Below, one piece after another: positions 1,101-62,627 of a DNA stretch of 64,000 bases (the stretch's first letter is position 1; each line of letters starts with the position of its first letter). This DNA is from Deltaproteobacteria bacterium (lineage in GTDB: Bacteria; Desulfobacterota; Desulfobaccia; Desulfobaccales; 0-14-0-80-60-11). The stretch covers positions 12,937 to 76,936 of the forward strand of contig JAKAKP010000133.1 of assembly GCA_021813445.1 (NCBI GenBank), read 5' to 3'. Made by a program: the position numbers and the translations under genes. Below the pieces are notes generated by a model. The model saw only the letters and a program-made list of their open reading frames with translations. It did no database searches and was not told the DNA's origin.

Positions 1101-1432
1101 CAGAACAGTTGCTCATGAGCCATTGGCCCACCCGTAAATTATGAAAAAAGTCGTAGGGGCGGGCGTCTCGCCCGCCCTGTTAATCCGCACAGGCTGGAAA
1201 GCCTGTGCTACCACAAGGACTTTTCGGAGCAGCTCCTCATGGGCCTTGGACCCACCCGTAAAGGGTGAGTAGTTTTATTCCCCCCTCACCCCACCCCTCT
1301 CCCCCCGCAAATTGTTGGTAGGAATAAGGGCGCTTTCTGGGCGGGGGGAGAGGGAGTAGGCGCCCGATATGACCCCCGTTTCCAAGGGGTGACTTCCCCC
1401 CCTTTGAAAAAGGGGGCAGGGGGGATTTTGAT
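1101..1432. repeat. Composite cluster of REP-like palindromic/direct repeats
   Basis: A ~40-bp direct repeat (1101-1143 vs 1225-1268, ...CTCATGrGCCwTTGGmCCCACCCGTAAA). Hairpins gtaggggcgggcgtctcgcccgccc and cacaggctggaaagcctgtg. Inverted ctctccccccgc/gcggggggagag. A ccccctttgaaaaagggggcagggg unit that recurs near 15040-15120. Confidence 0.7.
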
Positions 1433-2731: not shown

Positions 2732-5194
2732 TTGTGCTACAATCTCCCCATGTCTCAGACACCTTTGAGCCGCCCTCTTGTCTCTTTCCGTAAGTATTTT
2801 TATTCATTGATAATAGTTGCTGCCGCAGTTGCCCTCGTTTTCCTCGCGGGCTGTGCGCCCAAGGTGATAGCGCCGCCTATGCCGCCGCCGGAGGTGGTGG
2901 AGGCTCCGCCGCCCCCGCCGCCGCCACCACCGGCCGGCCTGCCCAAGGTCCAGGACCCCCGGCTCTCCCGCCTGGATACCGTGGCCGCCCGGGAGCTGGC
3001 GGCCGGGAACATCCCCGGAGCCGTCATTTTTGTGGGCAACCAGGGCAAAATCGTCTACCACCGGGCCCTGGGCCTGCGGACCATGACCCCTTACCAGCAG
3101 CCCATGACCGAGGACACCATCTTTGATCTGGCTTCCCTCACCAAGGTGGTGGCCACGACCACGGCCATCATGCAGCTCCGGGACCAGGGCCGCATCCGCC
3201 TCAATGATCGCGTGGCCAAATACTGGCCGGAATTTGCGGCCAACGGCAAGGGCGGCATCACCCTGCGGCAGCTTATGACCCACACCTCCGGCCTGCGGGC
3301 CGACGTCAATTCCCGGGTGCATTGGTCGGGCTATGAAGGGGCCATGGCGGCCATCGTCGCGGATCATCCCATCAGACCCCCGGGCACCATGTTCCATTAC
3401 AGCGACGCCAATTTCATCGTCCTGGGGGAGATCGTGCACCGGGTTTCGGGCCTGCCCCTGAACGTCTATTGCGCCCGGAATATTTTCCAGCCCCTGGGCC
3501 TCAAGGATACCACCTTCCTGCCCCAAAGCAGCCAGAAAGGCCGCATCGCACCCACGGATATGCGCTGGGGCAAGGTGCATGACCCCACGGCCTTCCGCAT
3601 GGGCGGGGTGGCGGGCAATGCCGGGGTCTTTTCCACCGCGGGCGATCTAGCCATTTTCGTGCAGATGCTCCTGGACGGCGGTTCCAGCCGGGGTAAGCAG
3701 ATTCTCAGTTCCGCCGCGGTGGCGGCGATGATCAAACCCTGTGCGGTCCCGGGTAACGGCACCCGCCGGGGTCTGGGCTGGGATATTTGCTCTCCCTACA
3801 GCCGGATCTTCAACGCCTCCTTCCCCATGGGCTCCTTCGGGCACACCGGCTACACCGGCACCTCCCTCTGGATCGACCCCAAGTCCAAGACCTTCCTGAT
3901 CATCCTCACCAACCGCCTCCATCCCCACGGCCAGGGGAAGGTCAAGGCCCTGCGGGCCCGGCTCTCTGCAGCCCTGGCCCAGGCCCTCCCCCTGGGCAGA
4001 CCGGCGAGAGCTGCGGTGGGAGGCCCTGCACCCCGGATGGCGGGCCATGGTTCCAGCGAGGGCCCGGATCAGGTGCGCAGCGGCCTGGAAGTCCTGGCCG
4101 CATCGGGCTTTGCCCCCCTGAAAGGCAAGAATATCGGGGTGATCACCAATCACACGGCCGTGGATGCCGCCAAGCGCTCCATACTCCAACTGCTGCTCCG
4201 GACCCCGGGGGTCAAGGTGCGGGCCATCTTCAGTCCGGAACACGGCCTGTCCGGCCAGTTGGACGAGAAGATCGCTTCCGGCCGGGATGCCGCCTCCGGC
4301 CTGCCGGTCTACAGCCTCTATGGCAAAATAATGCGGCCCACGCCGGCCATGCTCCGGGGGCTGGACGCCCTGGTCTATGATATCCAGGACGTGGGCACCC
4401 GGTTCTATACCTATATCACCACCATGACCTATGCCATGGAGGCCGCGGCCCACGCCGGCCTGGAATTCTATGTGCTGGACCGGCCCGATCCCCTGACCGC
4501 GGCCAGCGTCCAGGGGCCGATGCTGGACCCGAGTTTATGCTCCTTCATCGGCTGCTTCCCGATGCCGGTGCGCTATGGCCTGACCGTGGGGGAACTGGCG
4601 CAGCTCTTGAACCGGGAGAAGCACATCGGCGCCAGGTTGCAGGTGGTGAAGATGGAGGGTTACCGGCGGAAGGCCTGGTTCGACGAAACTGGTTTGCCCT
4701 GGATCAATCCTTCCCCCAACCTCCGGTCGCTGACTGAGGCAATCCTCTACCCGGGCGTGGGCCTGGTGGAATCCGCTAATGTCAGCGTGGGCCGGGGCAC
4801 TGCCACTCCTTTTGAAGTCATCGGCGCGCCCTGGATTTCCGGGGTCCGGCTGGCCCAGTATTTGCGCCAGCGGCAGATCGCCGGGATTGCGTTTGAAGCG
4901 GTAACTTTTGTACCTACTGCTAATCCCTTCAGAGGGCAAAGGTGTGAAGGGGTGCGCCTGCGCCTGGAGAACCGGGCCGCCCTGGATGCGCCGGCCTTGG
5001 GGATCGAATTGGCCTCCGCCCTGCTCCATTGCTTTCCGGGGAAATTCCATATGGACGGGGCCTTAGGCATGATCGGCTCCCGGGAGGTTTTGCAGGCCCT
5101 CAAGAATGGCGAAGATCCCCGGAGCATCAAACAGAAATGGCAGTACCGATTGGCGGCCTTTGAGCGCTTGCGGGCCAAGTACCTCCTTTATTGA
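2732..5194 (+). CDS. Lipoprotein fusion: N-terminal beta-lactamase-fold serine hydrolase (AmiE/PBP4*-like) + C-terminal DUF1343/NamZ-like exo-muramidase domain
   Basis: Signal/lipobox LVFLAGC followed by a poly-Pro linker. SxxK-type motif ASLTKVV and YSDANF in the N-terminal half. FSPEHG...LVYDIQDVGTRFYTYITTM (DUF1343) in the C-terminal half. Confidence 0.75.
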   Translation: MCYNLPMSQTPLSRPLVSFRKYFYSLIIVAAAVALVFLAGCAPKVIAPPMPPPEVVEAPPPPPPPPPAGLPKVQDPRLSRLDTVAARELAAGNIPGAVIFVGNQGKIVYHRALGLRTMTPYQQPMTEDTIFDLASLTKVVATTTAIMQLRDQGRIRLNDRVAKYWPEFAANGKGGITLRQLMTHTSGLRADVNSRVHWSGYEGAMAAIVADHPIRPPGTMFHYSDANFIVLGEIVHRVSGLPLNVYCARNIFQPLGLKDTTFLPQSSQKGRIAPTDMRWGKVHDPTAFRMGGVAGNAGVFSTAGDLAIFVQMLLDGGSSRGKQILSSAAVAAMIKPCAVPGNGTRRGLGWDICSPYSRIFNASFPMGSFGHTGYTGTSLWIDPKSKTFLIILTNRLHPHGQGKVKALRARLSAALAQALPLGRPARAAVGGPAPRMAGHGSSEGPDQVRSGLEVLAASGFAPLKGKNIGVITNHTAVDAAKRSILQLLLRTPGVKVRAIFSPEHGLSGQLDEKIASGRDAASGLPVYSLYGKIMRPTPAMLRGLDALVYDIQDVGTRFYTYITTMTYAMEAAAHAGLEFYVLDRPDPLTAASVQGPMLDPSLCSFIGCFPMPVRYGLTVGELAQLLNREKHIGARLQVVKMEGYRRKAWFDETGLPWINPSPNLRSLTEAILYPGVGLVESANVSVGRGTATPFEVIGAPWISGVRLAQYLRQRQIAGIAFEAVTFVPTANPFRGQRCEGVRLRLENRAALDAPALGIELASALLHCFPGKFHMDGALGMIGSREVLQALKNGEDPRSIKQKWQYRLAAFERLRAKYLLY

Positions 5195-13093: not shown

Positions 13094-13157
13094 GCATACA
13101 CTCCTTTTTACGTATCACTTCCGGGTAGTTAGCCTCAGCGCCCCCGGATACTCAGCC

Positions 13158-13170
13158 TATTGTCACAATA
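13158..13170. promoter_or_regulatory. Perfect 6-1-6 palindrome upstream of nifU (candidate operator)
   Basis: TATTGT-c-ACAATA, about 65-77 nt upstream of the nifU start. No family assignment is possible from sequence alone. Confidence 0.3.
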
Positions 13171-13235
13171 TAGTGCAGGTAAGGGTAAAAAACAATATTA
13201 GCCCCCTCAATCCCTGGCTTGTAAAGCAATTGCAG

Positions 13236-13730
13236 TTAGCGGCCGGGGAGGAAGTATTCCCAGGGCGGGAGCCGGTCATCCGGGACAGTCGACGGCAGCC
13301 CCAGGGACGCGGCGGGGGTCAGCAATTCCTGGGTCTGGTATGGGTCTTTAAACTCCTGTTCCGGCTTGAAGTTCAGGTACTTGACGCCCCGGTTCTGGAG
13401 GTAATAGGCCAGATCCAGTTTGATGTCCACCGCGATGTCCACCCAAAAGCACAAAGCCTGGCGCAGCAAAGCCGCGGACCTTTCGGCCAAGACCGCGGCA
13501 TCCCACAAATGCGCGGTATTTGCTGCCAGGTGGATTTGGCTCCTTGCTTTTGAGCCAGGAATCGTATTCCAAAGGATAGGCCTTCCCCCAGACCGCGGGA
13601 TCATATTCCCCGTCCGGGACGGCCACAGTTTTTACCGGCTCCGACGGCGGCGGCGAACATCCCCCCACAGTAAGACAAACCACGCCAGAACTACGGCCCA
13701 GAGAATCGAGATCAGCGCCTTCGTTTTCAT
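13236..13730 (-). pseudogene. Decayed cytochrome c nitrite reductase (NrfA)-like relic
   Basis: Pieces in three frames: signal peptide MKTKALISILWAVVLA, then (V)VCLTVGGCSPPPSEPVKTVAVPDGEYDPAVWGKAYPLEYDSW, then ...AHLWDAAVLAERS...PWEYFLPG. No CxxCH heme motif is left, so the core appears deleted. Confidence 0.4.
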
Positions 13731-13964
13731 CAGTTCATCCACCTGAGAGATTATGGGCTCCGGACCTCCACGGTCCCGGTGTGTTTAGGCGATATACGGC
13801 GGTGGCAGTCCCAGCACGGCCGCTCTTCCTTGATGCGGTAGACCGGTTCACGATGACAGCCGCGGAGAGAAAATATTTTATCTCGCCTGGTCTTATCTGG
13901 TCCATATGCTTATAATCTCTAGCACATTATCAATCCTTCCGGTAGTCAATTTTCATCAGGGGGC

Positions 13965-13992
13965 TTGCCAAATCAGTAATCATATATAGAAT
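13965..13992 (+). promoter_or_regulatory. Candidate sigma-70 promoter
   Basis: TTGCCA, 16-nt spacer, TAGAAT. Confidence 0.4.
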
Positions 13993-13998
13993 TTAGTT

Positions 13999-14071
13999 AC
14001 GGGATAGCGGCGGGGTTATCCTCATTTCCGGGCTGTTGGCAGGCCTGCATTCCCCCCGCTCCATTTTTTTC
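13999..14071 (+). ncRNA. Candidate ~70-nt structured transcript (sRNA or leader) ending in an intrinsic terminator
   Basis: Starts downstream of the candidate promoter. agcggcgggg...ccccccgct pairs around internal hairpins and is followed by ccattttttt. No match to an RNA family I recognise. Confidence 0.25.
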
Positions 14072-14180
14072 TTTACCTTCAAACCGATTTTATTTATTAT
14101 TTAGGTCAATTAGCCCATAGGCGGTCTGAGCCCGGCGCTGGCGGCGGGCCAAGACAGACCACCCCAAGGAGTATCCCGGG

Positions 14181-14456
14181 ATGAACAAGTCGCAGCTCAT
14201 CGAGGCCCTGGCCAAAGCGGAGAATCTCACCCTGAAGAAGGCCGAAATGGTGGTCAATGCCATGTTCGAGAACATGGCGGAAGCCCTGGTGCAAAAAGAA
14301 CGCATTGAGATTCGCGGCTTTGGCAGCTTTAAAGTAAAATTCTACAACGGCTACAAAGGCCGCAACCCCAAGACCGGGGACCTCATCGAGGTGGAGGGCA
14401 AAAAATTGCCCTTCTTTAAAGTCGGCAAGGAGCTGCGCGAACGCGTCGACCGCTGA
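14181..14456 (+). CDS. ihfB: HU/IHF-family DNA-binding protein, IHF-beta-like
   Basis: ERIEIRGFGSFKV...GRNPKTGDLIEVEGKKLPFFKVGKELRERV closely parallels IHF beta. Confidence 0.85.
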   Translation: MNKSQLIEALAKAENLTLKKAEMVVNAMFENMAEALVQKERIEIRGFGSFKVKFYNGYKGRNPKTGDLIEVEGKKLPFFKVGKELRERVDR

Positions 14457-14465
14457 GCCTTTTTA

Positions 14466-14737
14466 CCTGGCCGTGCTAGACGGGGAGCTAGCGGTGCCCT
14501 GTGACCCGAAAGCCGCTTATGCGGGGTTGAAGTCCTTTCTGAGGGTTGCAGCGCATCCGGGGACGGCTGTCCCGGGCGGCGGATTGGACCCCACGCAACA
14601 GACGCTGGTGAACCCCGTCAGGTCCGGGAGGAAGCAGCGGTAAATCAGGCGGTCTGTGTCGCGGCGGCTGCTAATCCTTAAACCCCCGGGCGGTCCCTCC
14701 GGTTGAAAGCGGATTCGAAGAAGGGTGCACGGCCAGG
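14466..14737 (+). ncRNA. ffs: Signal recognition particle RNA, large (Bacillus-type, Alu-domain-containing) form
   Basis: 5' GGCCGUGCUAGACGGGGAGCUAGCGGUGCCCUGUGACC parallels the B. subtilis scRNA Alu domain. Helix-8 motif GUCAGGUCCGGGAGGAAGCAGCGG is present. The termini cctggccgtgc/gcacggccagg pair. Confidence 0.85.
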
Positions 14738-14782
14738 CTAATCTTTTCCCGCCATTTTTCCTGCAAAATCCTGACTCATGTT

Positions 14783-15125
14783 AAAAAACCCCGGGGCACA
14801 GGCGGCTCGCCTGTGCCCCGGGCCTTAACTCTGCCCGCATAAAACCTCTGCGAAAGTCCCACTCACTTGTCATTCTGAGGGAGCGCAGCGACCGAAGAAT
14901 CTATCGTTGGGACATCAAGATTCTTCACTCCGCCGCACTCCATTCTGAAAGACAAAAATATGACTTTCGCTAAAGCCCAAAACCTAAACATGGCTACAAA
15001 AATGTTACCAACCAGAAAAAGATAGGAGGAATGCTTTGAAATCCCCCTTTGGAAAAGGGGGCTTAGGGGATTTGGAGGCGCTTATAAATCCCCCCTACCC
15101 CCTTTTTCAAAGGGGGGGAATCGTT
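14783..15125. repeat. REP-like cluster, including a hairpin that reads as a minus-strand terminator
   Basis: ccggggcacaggc-ggctc-gcctgtgccccgg is preceded by aaaaaa on the + strand, which is a T-run on the - strand. Inverted gtcattctgagggagcgcagcgaccgaagaatc / gattcttcactccgccgcactccattctga. Two inverted ccccctttnnaaaggggg units. Confidence 0.65.
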
Positions 15126-15192: not shown

Positions 15193-15942
15193 TCAGGCCT
15201 TCTTCTTCAGTTGGTCGGCCACCGATTGGATGGCCCGGGCCACGGCTTCCGGGTCGCCCAGGTAATAGTGGCGGATGGGGCTCAGATCATCATTGAGTTC
15301 GTAGACCAGGGGGATGCCCGTGGGGATGTTGAGGCCCACAATTTCCTCATCCGGGACGTTATCCAGGAACTTCACCAGGGCCCGCAGGCTGTTGCCGTGG
15401 GCGGCGATGAGCACCCTCTGGCCGACCCGGACAGCCGGGGCGATGGTTTCATGCCAGTAGGGCAGGAAGCGCGCCACCACATCCTTGAGACACTCGGTGA
15501 GGGGAATTTCTTCGGACCGCATACCGGCATAGCGGGGGTCGCGGCCGGGATAATAGGGATCTTCCGGAGTCAGGGCCGGGGGCGGCACGTCATAGCTGCG
15601 CCGCCAGATTTTGACCTGGTCCAGGCCGTGCTTCTCCACGGTCTCCGTCTTGTTCAGGCCCTGCAAGGCGCCGTAGTGGCGCTCATTGAGGCGCCAACTA
15701 TGATGCACCGGCAGCCACATCAGGTCCATCTCCTCCAGGGCCAGCCACAGGGTCTTGATGGCCCGCTTCAACATGGAGGTGAAGGCCACGTCAAAGACAA
15801 AACCCTCCTGGGCCAGGGTGCGGCCCGCCTGGTGGGCCTCGCCCACGCCCCGCTCCGAGAGGCTCACATCGATCCAGCCGGTGAACCGGTTCTCCTGATT
15901 CCAGATGCTTTCGCCGTGACGCAATAAGACGATCTTTTTCAT
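15193..15942 (-). CDS. gpmA: 2,3-bisphosphoglycerate-dependent phosphoglycerate mutase
   Basis: [32 protein letters not shown], with the catalytic RHGES motif. Confidence 0.92.
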
Positions 15943-42988: not shown

Positions 42989-43816
42989 TCAATCCAGTAG
43001 CAGCAAGTAGGCCACCGGGGTTATGGGGCTGGTCAGGCGAATCTTGACGAGAGCCGGGGTGCTGCTCAAGCCATTATCGCTGACTACCAGTTGGGCGGTA
43101 TAGAGGCCGCGGGTGTCGGCGATAAAGGTGGGGTTGGGGGAGGCCGGGTTGCTGAGCGCGGCGGCGCTGCCGGTTGGCTTGGCAGTCAGGGTCCACTGGT
43201 AGGAGCTGATGGCCTGGCCGTTGGCATCGTGGCTCTTGGTGCCGTCCAGGGTCACCACGGCGCCGATCCTGCAGATGACCCGGTCCGGGCCGGCGTCGGC
43301 CACCGGGGGGACATCGCGCAGGCTCACCGTCATGGTCACGGCCTGGCTGACGCCCTGGGAGTCCCGCACCACCAGTTGGATGACGTAATCGCCGTAGACG
43401 TCGGCAACGAAGGTGGGGGTGGCGGAGGTGGGGTCGAGCAAGGCGGCGTGGCTGCCCGGCGGCATGGAGACAATGGTCCAGAGGTAGGTAAGGTCCAAAC
43501 CCAAGGGGTCGTAGCTGCCGGAACCGTTGAGATAGACGGTGGAGCCGCTGATCAGGATGGTCTGGTTCGAGCCCGGATCGGCGACCGGGTCACCGGAGGT
43601 GGGGGTACTGGCAATCACCTGCCGGGCGGTGCGGTTGCCCGCGGCGTCGTAAGCGTACTGGATAATGGTGCCGTCATCGTACTGCACCTGGGTAAGACGG
43701 TTCAGGGTGTCGTAAGTGTATTGGGCGGTGCCAGCCAGCCCTGGAGCCGCAAGGAGGAGGCAAAAACAGACTGCCAAGACGATTTTTCTTAAAGACAGGT
43801 TTTTCATTAGCATCAT
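42989..43816 (-). CDS. Secreted protein with two YD repeats and two PKD-like domains
   Basis: Signal peptide, YTYDTLNRLTQVQYDDGTIIQYAYDAAGNR, then two repeats of the ...DAGPD/ADPGSNQT...L(D/N)GS.S.D...Y.W... pattern. Confidence 0.7.
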   Translation of the reverse strand: MMLMKNLSLRKIVLAVCFCLLLAAPGLAGTAQYTYDTLNRLTQVQYDDGTIIQYAYDAAGNRTARQVIASTPTSGDPVADPGSNQTILISGSTVYLNGSGSYDPLGLDLTYLWTIVSMPPGSHAALLDPTSATPTFVADVYGDYVIQLVVRDSQGVSQAVTMTVSLRDVPPVADAGPDRVICRIGAVVTLDGTKSHDANGQAISSYQWTLTAKPTGSAAALSNPASPNPTFIADTRGLYTAQLVVSDNGLSSTPALVKIRLTSPITPVAYLLLLD

Positions 43817-62468: not shown

Positions 62469-62543
62469 TGGAGGCGGCATCCGGATTCGAACCGGAGAAT
62501 AACGGTTTTGCAGACCGTTGCCTTACCACTTGGCTATGCCGCC
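62469..62543 (-). tRNA. tRNA-Cys: tRNA-Cys (anticodon GCA), CCA encoded
   Basis: Minus strand: GGCGGCATAGCCAAGTGGTAAGGCAACGGTCTGCAAAACCGTTATTCTCCGGTTCGAATCCGGATGCCGCCTCCA. Acceptor stem pairs, T-loop GGTTCGAATCC, anticodon loop CTGCAAA. Confidence 0.9.
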
Positions 62544-62552
62544 CAAAAAATA

Positions 62553-62627
<75 letters not shown>

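Follow-up and report, generated by a model that had tools for sequence, protein, structure and literature searches.

A 64,000-nucleotide stretch of DNA from a Deltaproteobacteria bacterium (contig JAKAKP010000133.1; 'the window' below is this whole stretch, with positions counted from its first letter) carries a gene for signal-recognition-particle (SRP) RNA, ffs, 9 nt behind a gene for a protein of the HU/IHF family. Taken singly, both RNA and protein belong to familiar families in standard form; what is new is the pair, a conserved and probably co-transcribed module of an ihfB-like gene and ffs in one large clade of Desulfobacterota. With a probability of about 0.7, a sigma-70-type promoter with a T-run, an 80-nt leader, the ihfB-like gene, the 9-nt spacer and a large SRP RNA would form a compact conserved module that gives rise to a joint transcript from which the RNA is cleaved out.

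The RNA is of the large type with an Alu domain, as a sequence-only reading of the locus had proposed. A cmscan search of the whole window with Rfam returned a single SRP match, to RF01854 (Bacteria_large_SRP) at 14471-14732 on the plus strand, scoring 139.7 bits (E = 6e-22; gathering score 60 bits) and spanning model positions 1-256 of 256. The closing helix runs a further 5 bp past the model ends, with CCUGG at 14466-14470 facing CCAGG at 14733-14737, so the length of the RNA is taken as ~272 nt (14466-14737, +). Membership of the small-SRP class, RF00169, would call for that family to be the best member of its clan and for a hairpin of ~100-130 nt without the 5' domain; the overlapping RF00169 match was weaker and was removed by clan competition, and the comparison of the two models proposed in the sequence-only reading is thus won by the large one. 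All the elements described in that reading lie where it had placed them, among them the helix-8 string GTCAGGTCCGGGAGGAAGCAGC at 14617-14638, and the gap, which it gave as about 10 nt, was counted as 9 nt.

The 5' Alu domain (14466-14532, +; RF01854 positions 1 to ~65) consists of one strand of the closing helix, helices 2-4 and the GCUAGCGGUGCCCUGU loop and U-turn region. The cmscan alignment predicts in it helices 2-4, the conserved loops, a turn of the UGUNR type and the pairing of the 5' and 3' ends. The helix-8 core GUCAGGUCCGGGAGGAAGCAGC (14617-14638, +) is by homology the binding site of the Ffh M domain. An alignment of 39 orthologous RNAs (287 columns) supports this structure, the RNAalifold consensus recovering the 11-bp closing helix, helices 3 and 4, helix 5 and helix 8. 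Compensatory double changes are seen in 30 of the 64 consensus pairs, chiefly in helix 5, and because so many pairs covary the RF01854 match is not due to chance; the orthologues themselves score 118-148 bits against this model. The helix-8 core with its GNRA tetraloop is invariant in all 39 except for a G/A alternation in the tetraloop. Mean column identity is 0.92 in the 5' Alu domain, 0.85 in the S domain and ~0.5 in the strands of helix 5, making the Alu domain, with 36 of its 68 columns invariant, the best-conserved segment of the molecule. Judged by this conservation, the Alu domain is clearly functional in the Desulfobacterota clade that has the linkage.

The upstream gene (14181-14456, +, with the stop codon TGA at 14454-14456) encodes a protein of 91 aa that matches PF00216 with 105.7 bits. 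Its best NCBIfam models are two IHF-beta equivalogs, NF001222 and TIGR00988, and it falls narrowly under the cutoff of each (111.1 versus 115 and 104.5 versus 119.95 bits), hence the label 'IHF-beta-like'. The equivalogs for HU, the HBsu type, are far below theirs, with 56.8 versus 157 bits for HU-beta and 53.6 versus 162 bits for HU-alpha. A PDB search gave E. coli IHF-beta as the nearest solved structure (87 bits), against ~70 bits for HU and 48 bits for IHF-alpha. The beta-arm motifs ERIEIRGFGSF and GRNPKTGD are common to the 91-aa protein and E. coli IHF-beta, and the DNA-contact motifs RIEIR and NPKTG are intact. On a protein tree it is orthologous to unlinked genes of sister clades, with no long branch and no accelerated divergence. 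On these comparisons the protein is to be regarded as an ordinary IHF-beta orthologue. No second HU-family gene, such as one for an IHF-alpha subunit with which the protein may form a heterodimer, occurs in the window.

The two genes are closely set. Between the stop codon and the closing helix lie the 9 nt of the spacer GCCTTTTTA (14457-14465, +), where the 5' processing site would fall; the distance to the start of the Rfam model is 14 nt. A scan of the window found neither a promoter nor a terminator between the two genes and no promoter near the gap; plus-strand promoter-like sites in this region occur only upstream of the protein gene. The site assigned to the module (14064-14100, +) has a T-run at 14064-14070, a -35 box TTTACC at 14072-14077, a 17-nt spacer and a -10 box TATTAT at 14095-14100. 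The same T-run and TTTACC-17-TATnAT stand at the matching position, 73-99 nt before the ATG, in 14 Desulfobaccia loci, and many Desulfobacteraceae-type loci, including one with a small SRP RNA, have TTGACT-17-TATTTT. A second candidate at 13965-13992 scores higher (10 of 12 matches) than 14072-14100 but is not conserved, and it was set aside. The 5' leader, counted from a presumed transcription start (14101-14180, +), contains the conserved string AATTAGCC at 14108-14115, seen in alignment A2, and a ribosome-binding site AAGGAG at 14166-14171. With both genes on the same strand, a 9-nt gap, nothing intervening and a promoter upstream, the pair is a predicted operon, and a single transcript shared by the protein gene and ffs appears to be the best-supported reading.

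Further evidence comes from strains in which the protein is identical and the DNA is 93-95% identical. Here the similarity is limited to window positions 14063-14744, with unrelated sequence on both sides. Its limits are the first base of the promoter T-run on one side and a point 7 nt beyond the RNA on the other, so that the evolutionary unit matches the predicted transcription unit. The 3' boundary falls within a T-rich tail CTAATCTTTTCCCGCCATTTTTCC (14738-14766, +), a putative 3' end or terminator region to which both the end of the homology block at 14744 and an enrichment of T-runs point: of 40 loci, 16 have TTTT no more than 14 nt beyond the closing helix, whereas random positions give a mean of 3.0 (maximum 9). 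The GC-rich terminal helix of the RNA, together with the U-tract, may often end the transcription unit. Co-transcription, which the sequence-only reading had put forward, is thus favoured by the sequence evidence: the tiny gap, the lack of an ffs promoter, the conserved upstream promoter and a block of homology reaching from that promoter to the end of the RNA.

It is unlikely, though conceivable, that ffs has a promoter of its own, non-canonical or placed within the last part of the protein gene, in which case the pair would be independent units that lie close together. Of 40 non-redundant loci, 36 have a gap of 4-27 nt, and the spacer sequence is unconserved. The Desulfobacca subgroup with gaps of 22-27 nt has an A/T-rich spacer with ATAT-like strings at its end, and one locus (L015) has a perfect TATAAT in its gap, as an ffs promoter might require; but with these A/T-rich strings right against the mature 5' end, a start 7 nt further on would land inside the closing helix, and the gaps of 4-9 nt are too short to hold a promoter at all. 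A suitably placed sigma-70-like site was found in only 2 of the 36 tight loci (control windows inside the gene gave a mean of 0.19 and a maximum of 3), and widening the window to 60 nt raised this to 3 of 36 against 1.4 in the controls. No hexamer is conserved, and the synonymous sites of the last codons are free to vary. In the divergent strains, moreover, the conserved block begins at the upstream promoter and not within the gene. An embedded -35 box, TTGACA, arising from the RVDI (Val-Asp-Ile) end of many Desulfobacteraceae genes, was considered and rejected, as the Val codon varies (GTT, GTG, GTC, GTA) and no -10 box stands at the proper distance. A separate promoter is possible for ffs in those lineages where the gap is 100-570 nt or more.

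The arrangement is widespread among relatives. In all of the first five that were checked, an RF01854 match lies 16-29 nt after the stop codon. A survey of the 80 closest protein homologues (64-99% identity, one genome per GTDB species), with the downstream SRP RNA sought by nhmmer and tblastn and verified by cmscan, found ffs directly downstream in 41 species. The RNA is large in 36 of these, with a gap of at most 30 nt in 32; it is small in four and cut by a contig end in one, and the remaining 39 of the 80 have no SRP RNA within 3 kb downstream. Among contigs encoding an identical protein, the RNA follows the gene by 9-11 nt in 10 of the 10 that reach beyond it, and the synteny that the sequence-only reading had proposed to check is thus found in both sets.

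When the proteins are placed on a neighbour-joining tree, all linked genes fall into one clade, with a single exception (L067). The clade is made up of Desulfobacca-like, Desulfarculus-like and Desulfobacteraceae-like lineages (Desulfobaccia, Desulfarculia and Desulfobacteria-like, respectively) and a small extra group. Its sister consists of unlinked Syntrophobacteraceae, with unlinked Desulfuromonadia (relatives of Geobacter) outside, and protein identity to these unlinked orthologues is 64-76%. Because the linked genes form one clade, the linkage is placed on this tree as having a single origin, in the common ancestor of this large group of Desulfobacterota. One locus binned as Acidobacteriota (L041) has the full Desulfobacteraceae-type order of cmk/hisC, ihfB-like gene, ffs and pgeF; its protein groups inside the Desulfobacteraceae-type clade, so the contig is probably mis-binned.

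The surroundings of the pair vary overall. Desulfobacteraceae-type loci have cmk and hisC upstream and a pgeF-like gene downstream, and in Desulfobacca-type loci the downstream neighbour is pyrG, rplY or a molybdopterin oxidoreductase gene. Taking all loci together, gpmA, DUF547-MscL or pgeF may also follow, and nifU, nrfHA, hisC-cmk or a chloride-channel gene may precede. Even contigs whose proteins are 100% identical differ, with nrfH-nrfA-cytochrome c or nifU upstream and DUF547-MscL or gpmA downstream. These exchanges bear on the notion that the adjacency is a neutral historical accident of no selective value, with or without read-through. Such an accident would sit well with sister clades that lack the linkage, with its absence from one or more members of the linked clade itself (L067 at least), with insertions that have loosened the pair in several species and with its indifference to the size class of the RNA. 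It should, however, decay together with its surroundings, whereas both neighbours have been swapped many times while the pair and its spacing of 4-27 nt have stayed, and a neutral origin of the persistence is very improbable.

The sequence-only reading had gone a step further, suggesting that the HU/IHF-like protein is the partner of the Alu domain in this lineage, in a role like that of HBsu, with the operon reflecting co-assembly of a ribonucleoprotein. HBsu has been reported to bind the Alu domain of B. subtilis (cited in PMC4231752), the gene pair has been kept over class-level distances despite changing flanks, and the 5' Alu domain is very strongly constrained in the linked clade. The protein, however, resembles IHF-beta and not HU, with the DNA-contact motifs of IHF-beta preserved, and it groups with the unlinked Syntrophobacteraceae and Desulfuromonadia orthologues. 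Elsewhere, an HU-family gene is missing from the vicinity of a Thermodesulfobacteriota locus (L148) and of 44 of 45 other loci with a large SRP RNA. The prokaryotic Alu domain has also been described as protein-free, with no specific role for HU that could be established (PMC4231752).

A further objection is that the linkage outlasts the Alu domain. Small SRP RNAs, hairpins of 97-130 nt that match RF00169, occupy the same locus in four species (L057, L021, L022 and L025). In L057 a 129-nt hairpin (3303-3431; RF00169, 61.7 bits) begins 24 nt past the stop codon, and its flanks are of the Desulfobacteraceae type, with hisC upstream and pgeF downstream; the retention of these flanks and of a tight gap indicates that the Alu domain was deleted in place with the linkage retained. 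The Desulfarculus/Dethiosulfatarculus group has the small form beside a Desulfarculaceae relative that keeps the large one, and L020 is likewise a near relative of a small-form species that keeps its large SRP RNA. Small forms beside large-form relatives point to repeated and recent conversion of large to small SRP RNA within Desulfobacterota. The comparative evidence as a whole leans against an Alu-partner role, which we regard as improbable. It may still be compatible with RNA binding by so abundant a nucleic-acid-binding protein. Binding of the protein to the SRP RNA, or to the joint transcript before processing, either as an HBsu-like component of the SRP or as a coupler of nucleoid-protein synthesis to SRP RNA maturation, is again a long shot.

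Under the joint-transcript reading, transcription would start at the sigma-70-type promoter at 14064-14100, and the SRP RNA, probably without a promoter of its own, would be made as the 3' part of the transcript of the protein gene. An endonucleolytic cut at the 5' end of the RNA would then free it, and the transcript would end at the GC-rich closing helix and the U-rich tail. Most economically, the pair would be retained amid reshuffled surroundings for shared, strong, constitutive expression and not for a protein-Alu partnership. What the analysis shows is the identity of the two genes, the distance between them, the conservation of both the pair and its promoter and the lack of a conserved promoter for ffs; that they share a transcript, that it is processed and why the pair has been kept are inferred. 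Every SRP RNA studied is excised from a longer precursor (PMC1935012). The 5' end is matured by RNase P in the case of E. coli 4.5S RNA and by RNases III, J1 and PH in the case of the 354-nt precursor of the B. subtilis small cytoplasmic RNA (scRNA) (PMC1935012). As SRP RNAs are normally cut from precursors, release from an mRNA-RNA co-transcript would need nothing new.

Several points weigh against this reading. Co-transcription is deduced here from sequence, and the promoter scan covered the sigma-70-type consensus only. More than half of the loci have no clear U-run 3' of the RNA. No extended flanking helix of the kind cut by RNase III was seen on inspection of the window and L001; a structure like that of the B. 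subtilis precursor was considered for both and dropped, the 5' spacer and 3' tail not being complementary in either. The gap is 100-567 nt in L020, L034, L038 and L061 and ~150-240 nt in Desulfarculus-type loci, so a shared transcript is not obligatory everywhere. In L020 the 100-nt gap (322-421) contains a GC-rich terminator-like hairpin, and in L061 an insertion of 567 nt (3280-3846) parts the protein gene from ffs; the genes of these two loci may now be independent units, and independent transcription is plausible in wide-gap and Desulfarculus-type lineages generally. Lastly, Desulfobacteraceae have the co-directional pgeF-like gene close behind ffs, and their transcription unit may be longer. 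Logan contigs were considered as transcript assemblies and put aside as uninformative on transcripts, since they carry unrelated flanking genes or break within the RNA.

Among known systems, the scRNA of B. subtilis belongs to the same family (RF01854), has nearly the same length (~271 versus ~272 nt) and likewise combines a 5' Alu domain with a helix-8 S domain and lacks helix 6. It is matured from a longer precursor, as is proposed for the RNA here, but that 354-nt precursor is its own (PMC1935012), whereas the RNA here stands 9 nt behind an HU-family gene. A protein of this family is linked to the RNA in both cases, the gene here being IHF-beta-like and not, as HBsu, HU-like, and no dnaX lies nearby. 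In B. subtilis we take the scRNA gene to adjoin dnaX, with hbs elsewhere in the genome. The 4.5S RNA encoded by E. coli ffs (RF00169) has a homologous S domain and a helix-8 core essentially identical to that of the RNA described here, but no Alu domain; its 5' leader is cut off by an endonuclease, RNase P, and endonucleolytic release is only proposed here.

Precedents for the arrangement differ from it in their partners or their order. Enterobacterial ihfB presumably shares a transcript with rpsA, a gene of the translation apparatus, and the likeness extends to cmk, which lies nearby in Desulfobacteraceae-type loci too; the partner here is a non-coding RNA downstream and not a ribosomal-protein gene upstream. 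Mixed operons such as that of tRNA and tufB in E. coli, or the co-transcript of tRNA-Ser and 7S RNA in archaea, place a stable RNA under the same promoter as another gene and release it by processing. Here, by contrast, the mRNA comes first and the stable RNA second, and the partner is a nucleoid protein. No account of an SRP RNA behind an ihfB-like gene, or of a promoter-ihfB-like-ffs module, was found in the searchable literature. Nothing relevant turned up on large SRP RNA in Deltaproteobacteria or other Desulfo* taxa, nor on ffs in connection with IHF or with co-transcription, and a paper on Geobacter IHF makes no mention of SRP.

The wider distribution of SRP RNA genes was sampled by searching a set of metagenomes for the universal helix-8 motif, which gave 120 loci (L090-L209), 114 of them classifiable. 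A 5' Alu domain is present in 46 and absent from 68, and 12 of the large loci were verified as RF01854 (150-210 bits). Many of the large-type loci lie on contigs with 63-73% G+C. Where enough upstream sequence was available, an HU-family gene preceded the RNA at one of the 45 large loci and at none of the 65 small ones, the sole case (L091) being a Desulfobacterota-type locus whose protein shows 72% identity. The usual order is ffs followed by dnaX, seen in 13 of the 33 large loci and 40 of the 55 small ones, so that small SRP genes in this sample mostly precede dnaX and never follow an HU-family gene; this order is absent from the window and from every linked locus. On these counts, the ihfB-like-ffs linkage is to be seen as a derived trait of one clade. 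After L091, the SRP RNA most like the Desulfobacterota type is that of L148, from a Thermodesulfobacteriota/'Desulfobacterales' metagenome-assembled genome (MAG), where the large RNA is followed on the same strand by grpE (1699-2830) with no HU-family gene; among unlinked loci of Desulfobacterota-like character it is the only one to which a taxon was assigned. At L110 (3620-6629) a large SRP RNA likewise precedes grpE-dnaK on the same strand with no HU-family gene, and ffs-grpE is another conserved context of the large RNA. At L140 (11035-11703), L171 (838-1372) and L190 (578-1254) one or two tRNAs of 83-85 nt lie just upstream of a large SRP RNA on the same strand, L140 having in addition a complete rRNA operon ~3 kb downstream. 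These three loci resemble the archaeal tRNA-Ser-7S RNA arrangement. The large SRP RNA of L124, which has the ffs-dnaX order, belongs to Candidatus Dormibacterota.

According to Kempf et al. 2014 (PMC4231752), the Alu domain is missing in Gram-negatives except Thermotogae, and Cavalier-Smith 2006 describes its distribution in much the same way. The premise of the sequence-only reading, that large SRP RNAs are known mainly from Firmicutes and Thermotogae, is too narrow in the face of 46 large loci among 114 drawn at random from metagenomes. Large SRP RNA is distributed far more widely than the literature has it.

The host is a Desulfobaccia-type (Desulfobacca-like) member of Desulfobacterota. 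The nearest homologues of the protein are in Desulfobacca acetoxidans, other Desulfobacca spp. and MAGs labelled 'Syntrophobacterales' and 'Deltaproteobacteria'; a groundwater MAG (L010) has a copy that is 99% identical, and an ENA contig (L212) matches 4.5 kb of the window with 99.96% identity. Behind the corresponding locus of D. acetoxidans lie pyrG, a gene of the KDO-8-P-synthase type (kdsA-type) and lptC. The last two fit a diderm envelope, in keeping with the diderm host assumed in the sequence-only reading.

In the window itself, nifS-nifU lie upstream of the module and a convergent gpmA-like gene (His_Phos_1; 15193-15942, -) lies downstream. The latter ends in a perfect 15-bp hairpin terminator (14790-14822, -), found by the terminator scan and as inverted repeat I2, which is outside the conserved module and may also halt read-through on the plus strand. 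Five close relatives (L210, L213, L214, L215 and L219) have nrfH-nrfA and a cytochrome c gene 5' of the IHF-beta-like gene, in L210 between it and nifU; these genes are missing from the window and from L211, L212 and L216. A gene-poor stretch of 640 nt in the window (13094-13733), at the place where those relatives have the nrfH-nrfA cluster, looks like a deletion scar. The open reading frames (ORFs) at 13236-13683 (-) have no Pfam domains, and that at 13348-13683 (-) holds the NrfA-like string 'EYDPAVWGKAYPLEYDSW'. A palindrome of the repetitive extragenic (REP-like) kind, CCCCCTTTGRAAAAGGGGG, occurs in three copies in the window (1398-1416, 15043-15061 and 15098-15116) against a chance expectation of 0.13, and two of the copies, lying between ffs and gpmA, make up an imperfect inverted repeat of 31 nt. 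A long imperfect inverted repeat at 14869-14960, beginning GTCATTCTGAGGGAGCGCAGCGACCGAAGAATC, occurs once in the window. Further away are a group II intron match (RF00029, 42211-42286, -; 43.1 bits versus 40) with a 275-aa ORF (42989-43816) just upstream on the same strand, and two neighbouring tRNA genes at 62472-62627 (-).

The module has consequences at several levels. A housekeeping stable RNA that seemingly depends on the promoter of a protein gene predicts specific processing at a defined junction. In D. acetoxidans the module also provides a cultivable test system for the 25-year-old claim that an HU-family protein associates with the bacterial Alu domain, an association against which the comparative evidence gathered here leans. 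Should the protein nevertheless prove to bind the SRP RNA, the operon would be a genomic trace of a partnership between HU-family proteins and the SRP in a diderm phylum, and the few species with small SRP RNAs would have lost the Alu domain recently, with the gene order not yet gone. For the RNA family, the textbook rule that assigns large SRP RNA to Gram-positives and Thermotogae and 4.5S RNA to all others is wrong in practice: the large form is the norm in several classes of Desulfobacterota, makes up ~40% of a random metagenome sample and is present in Dormibacterota.

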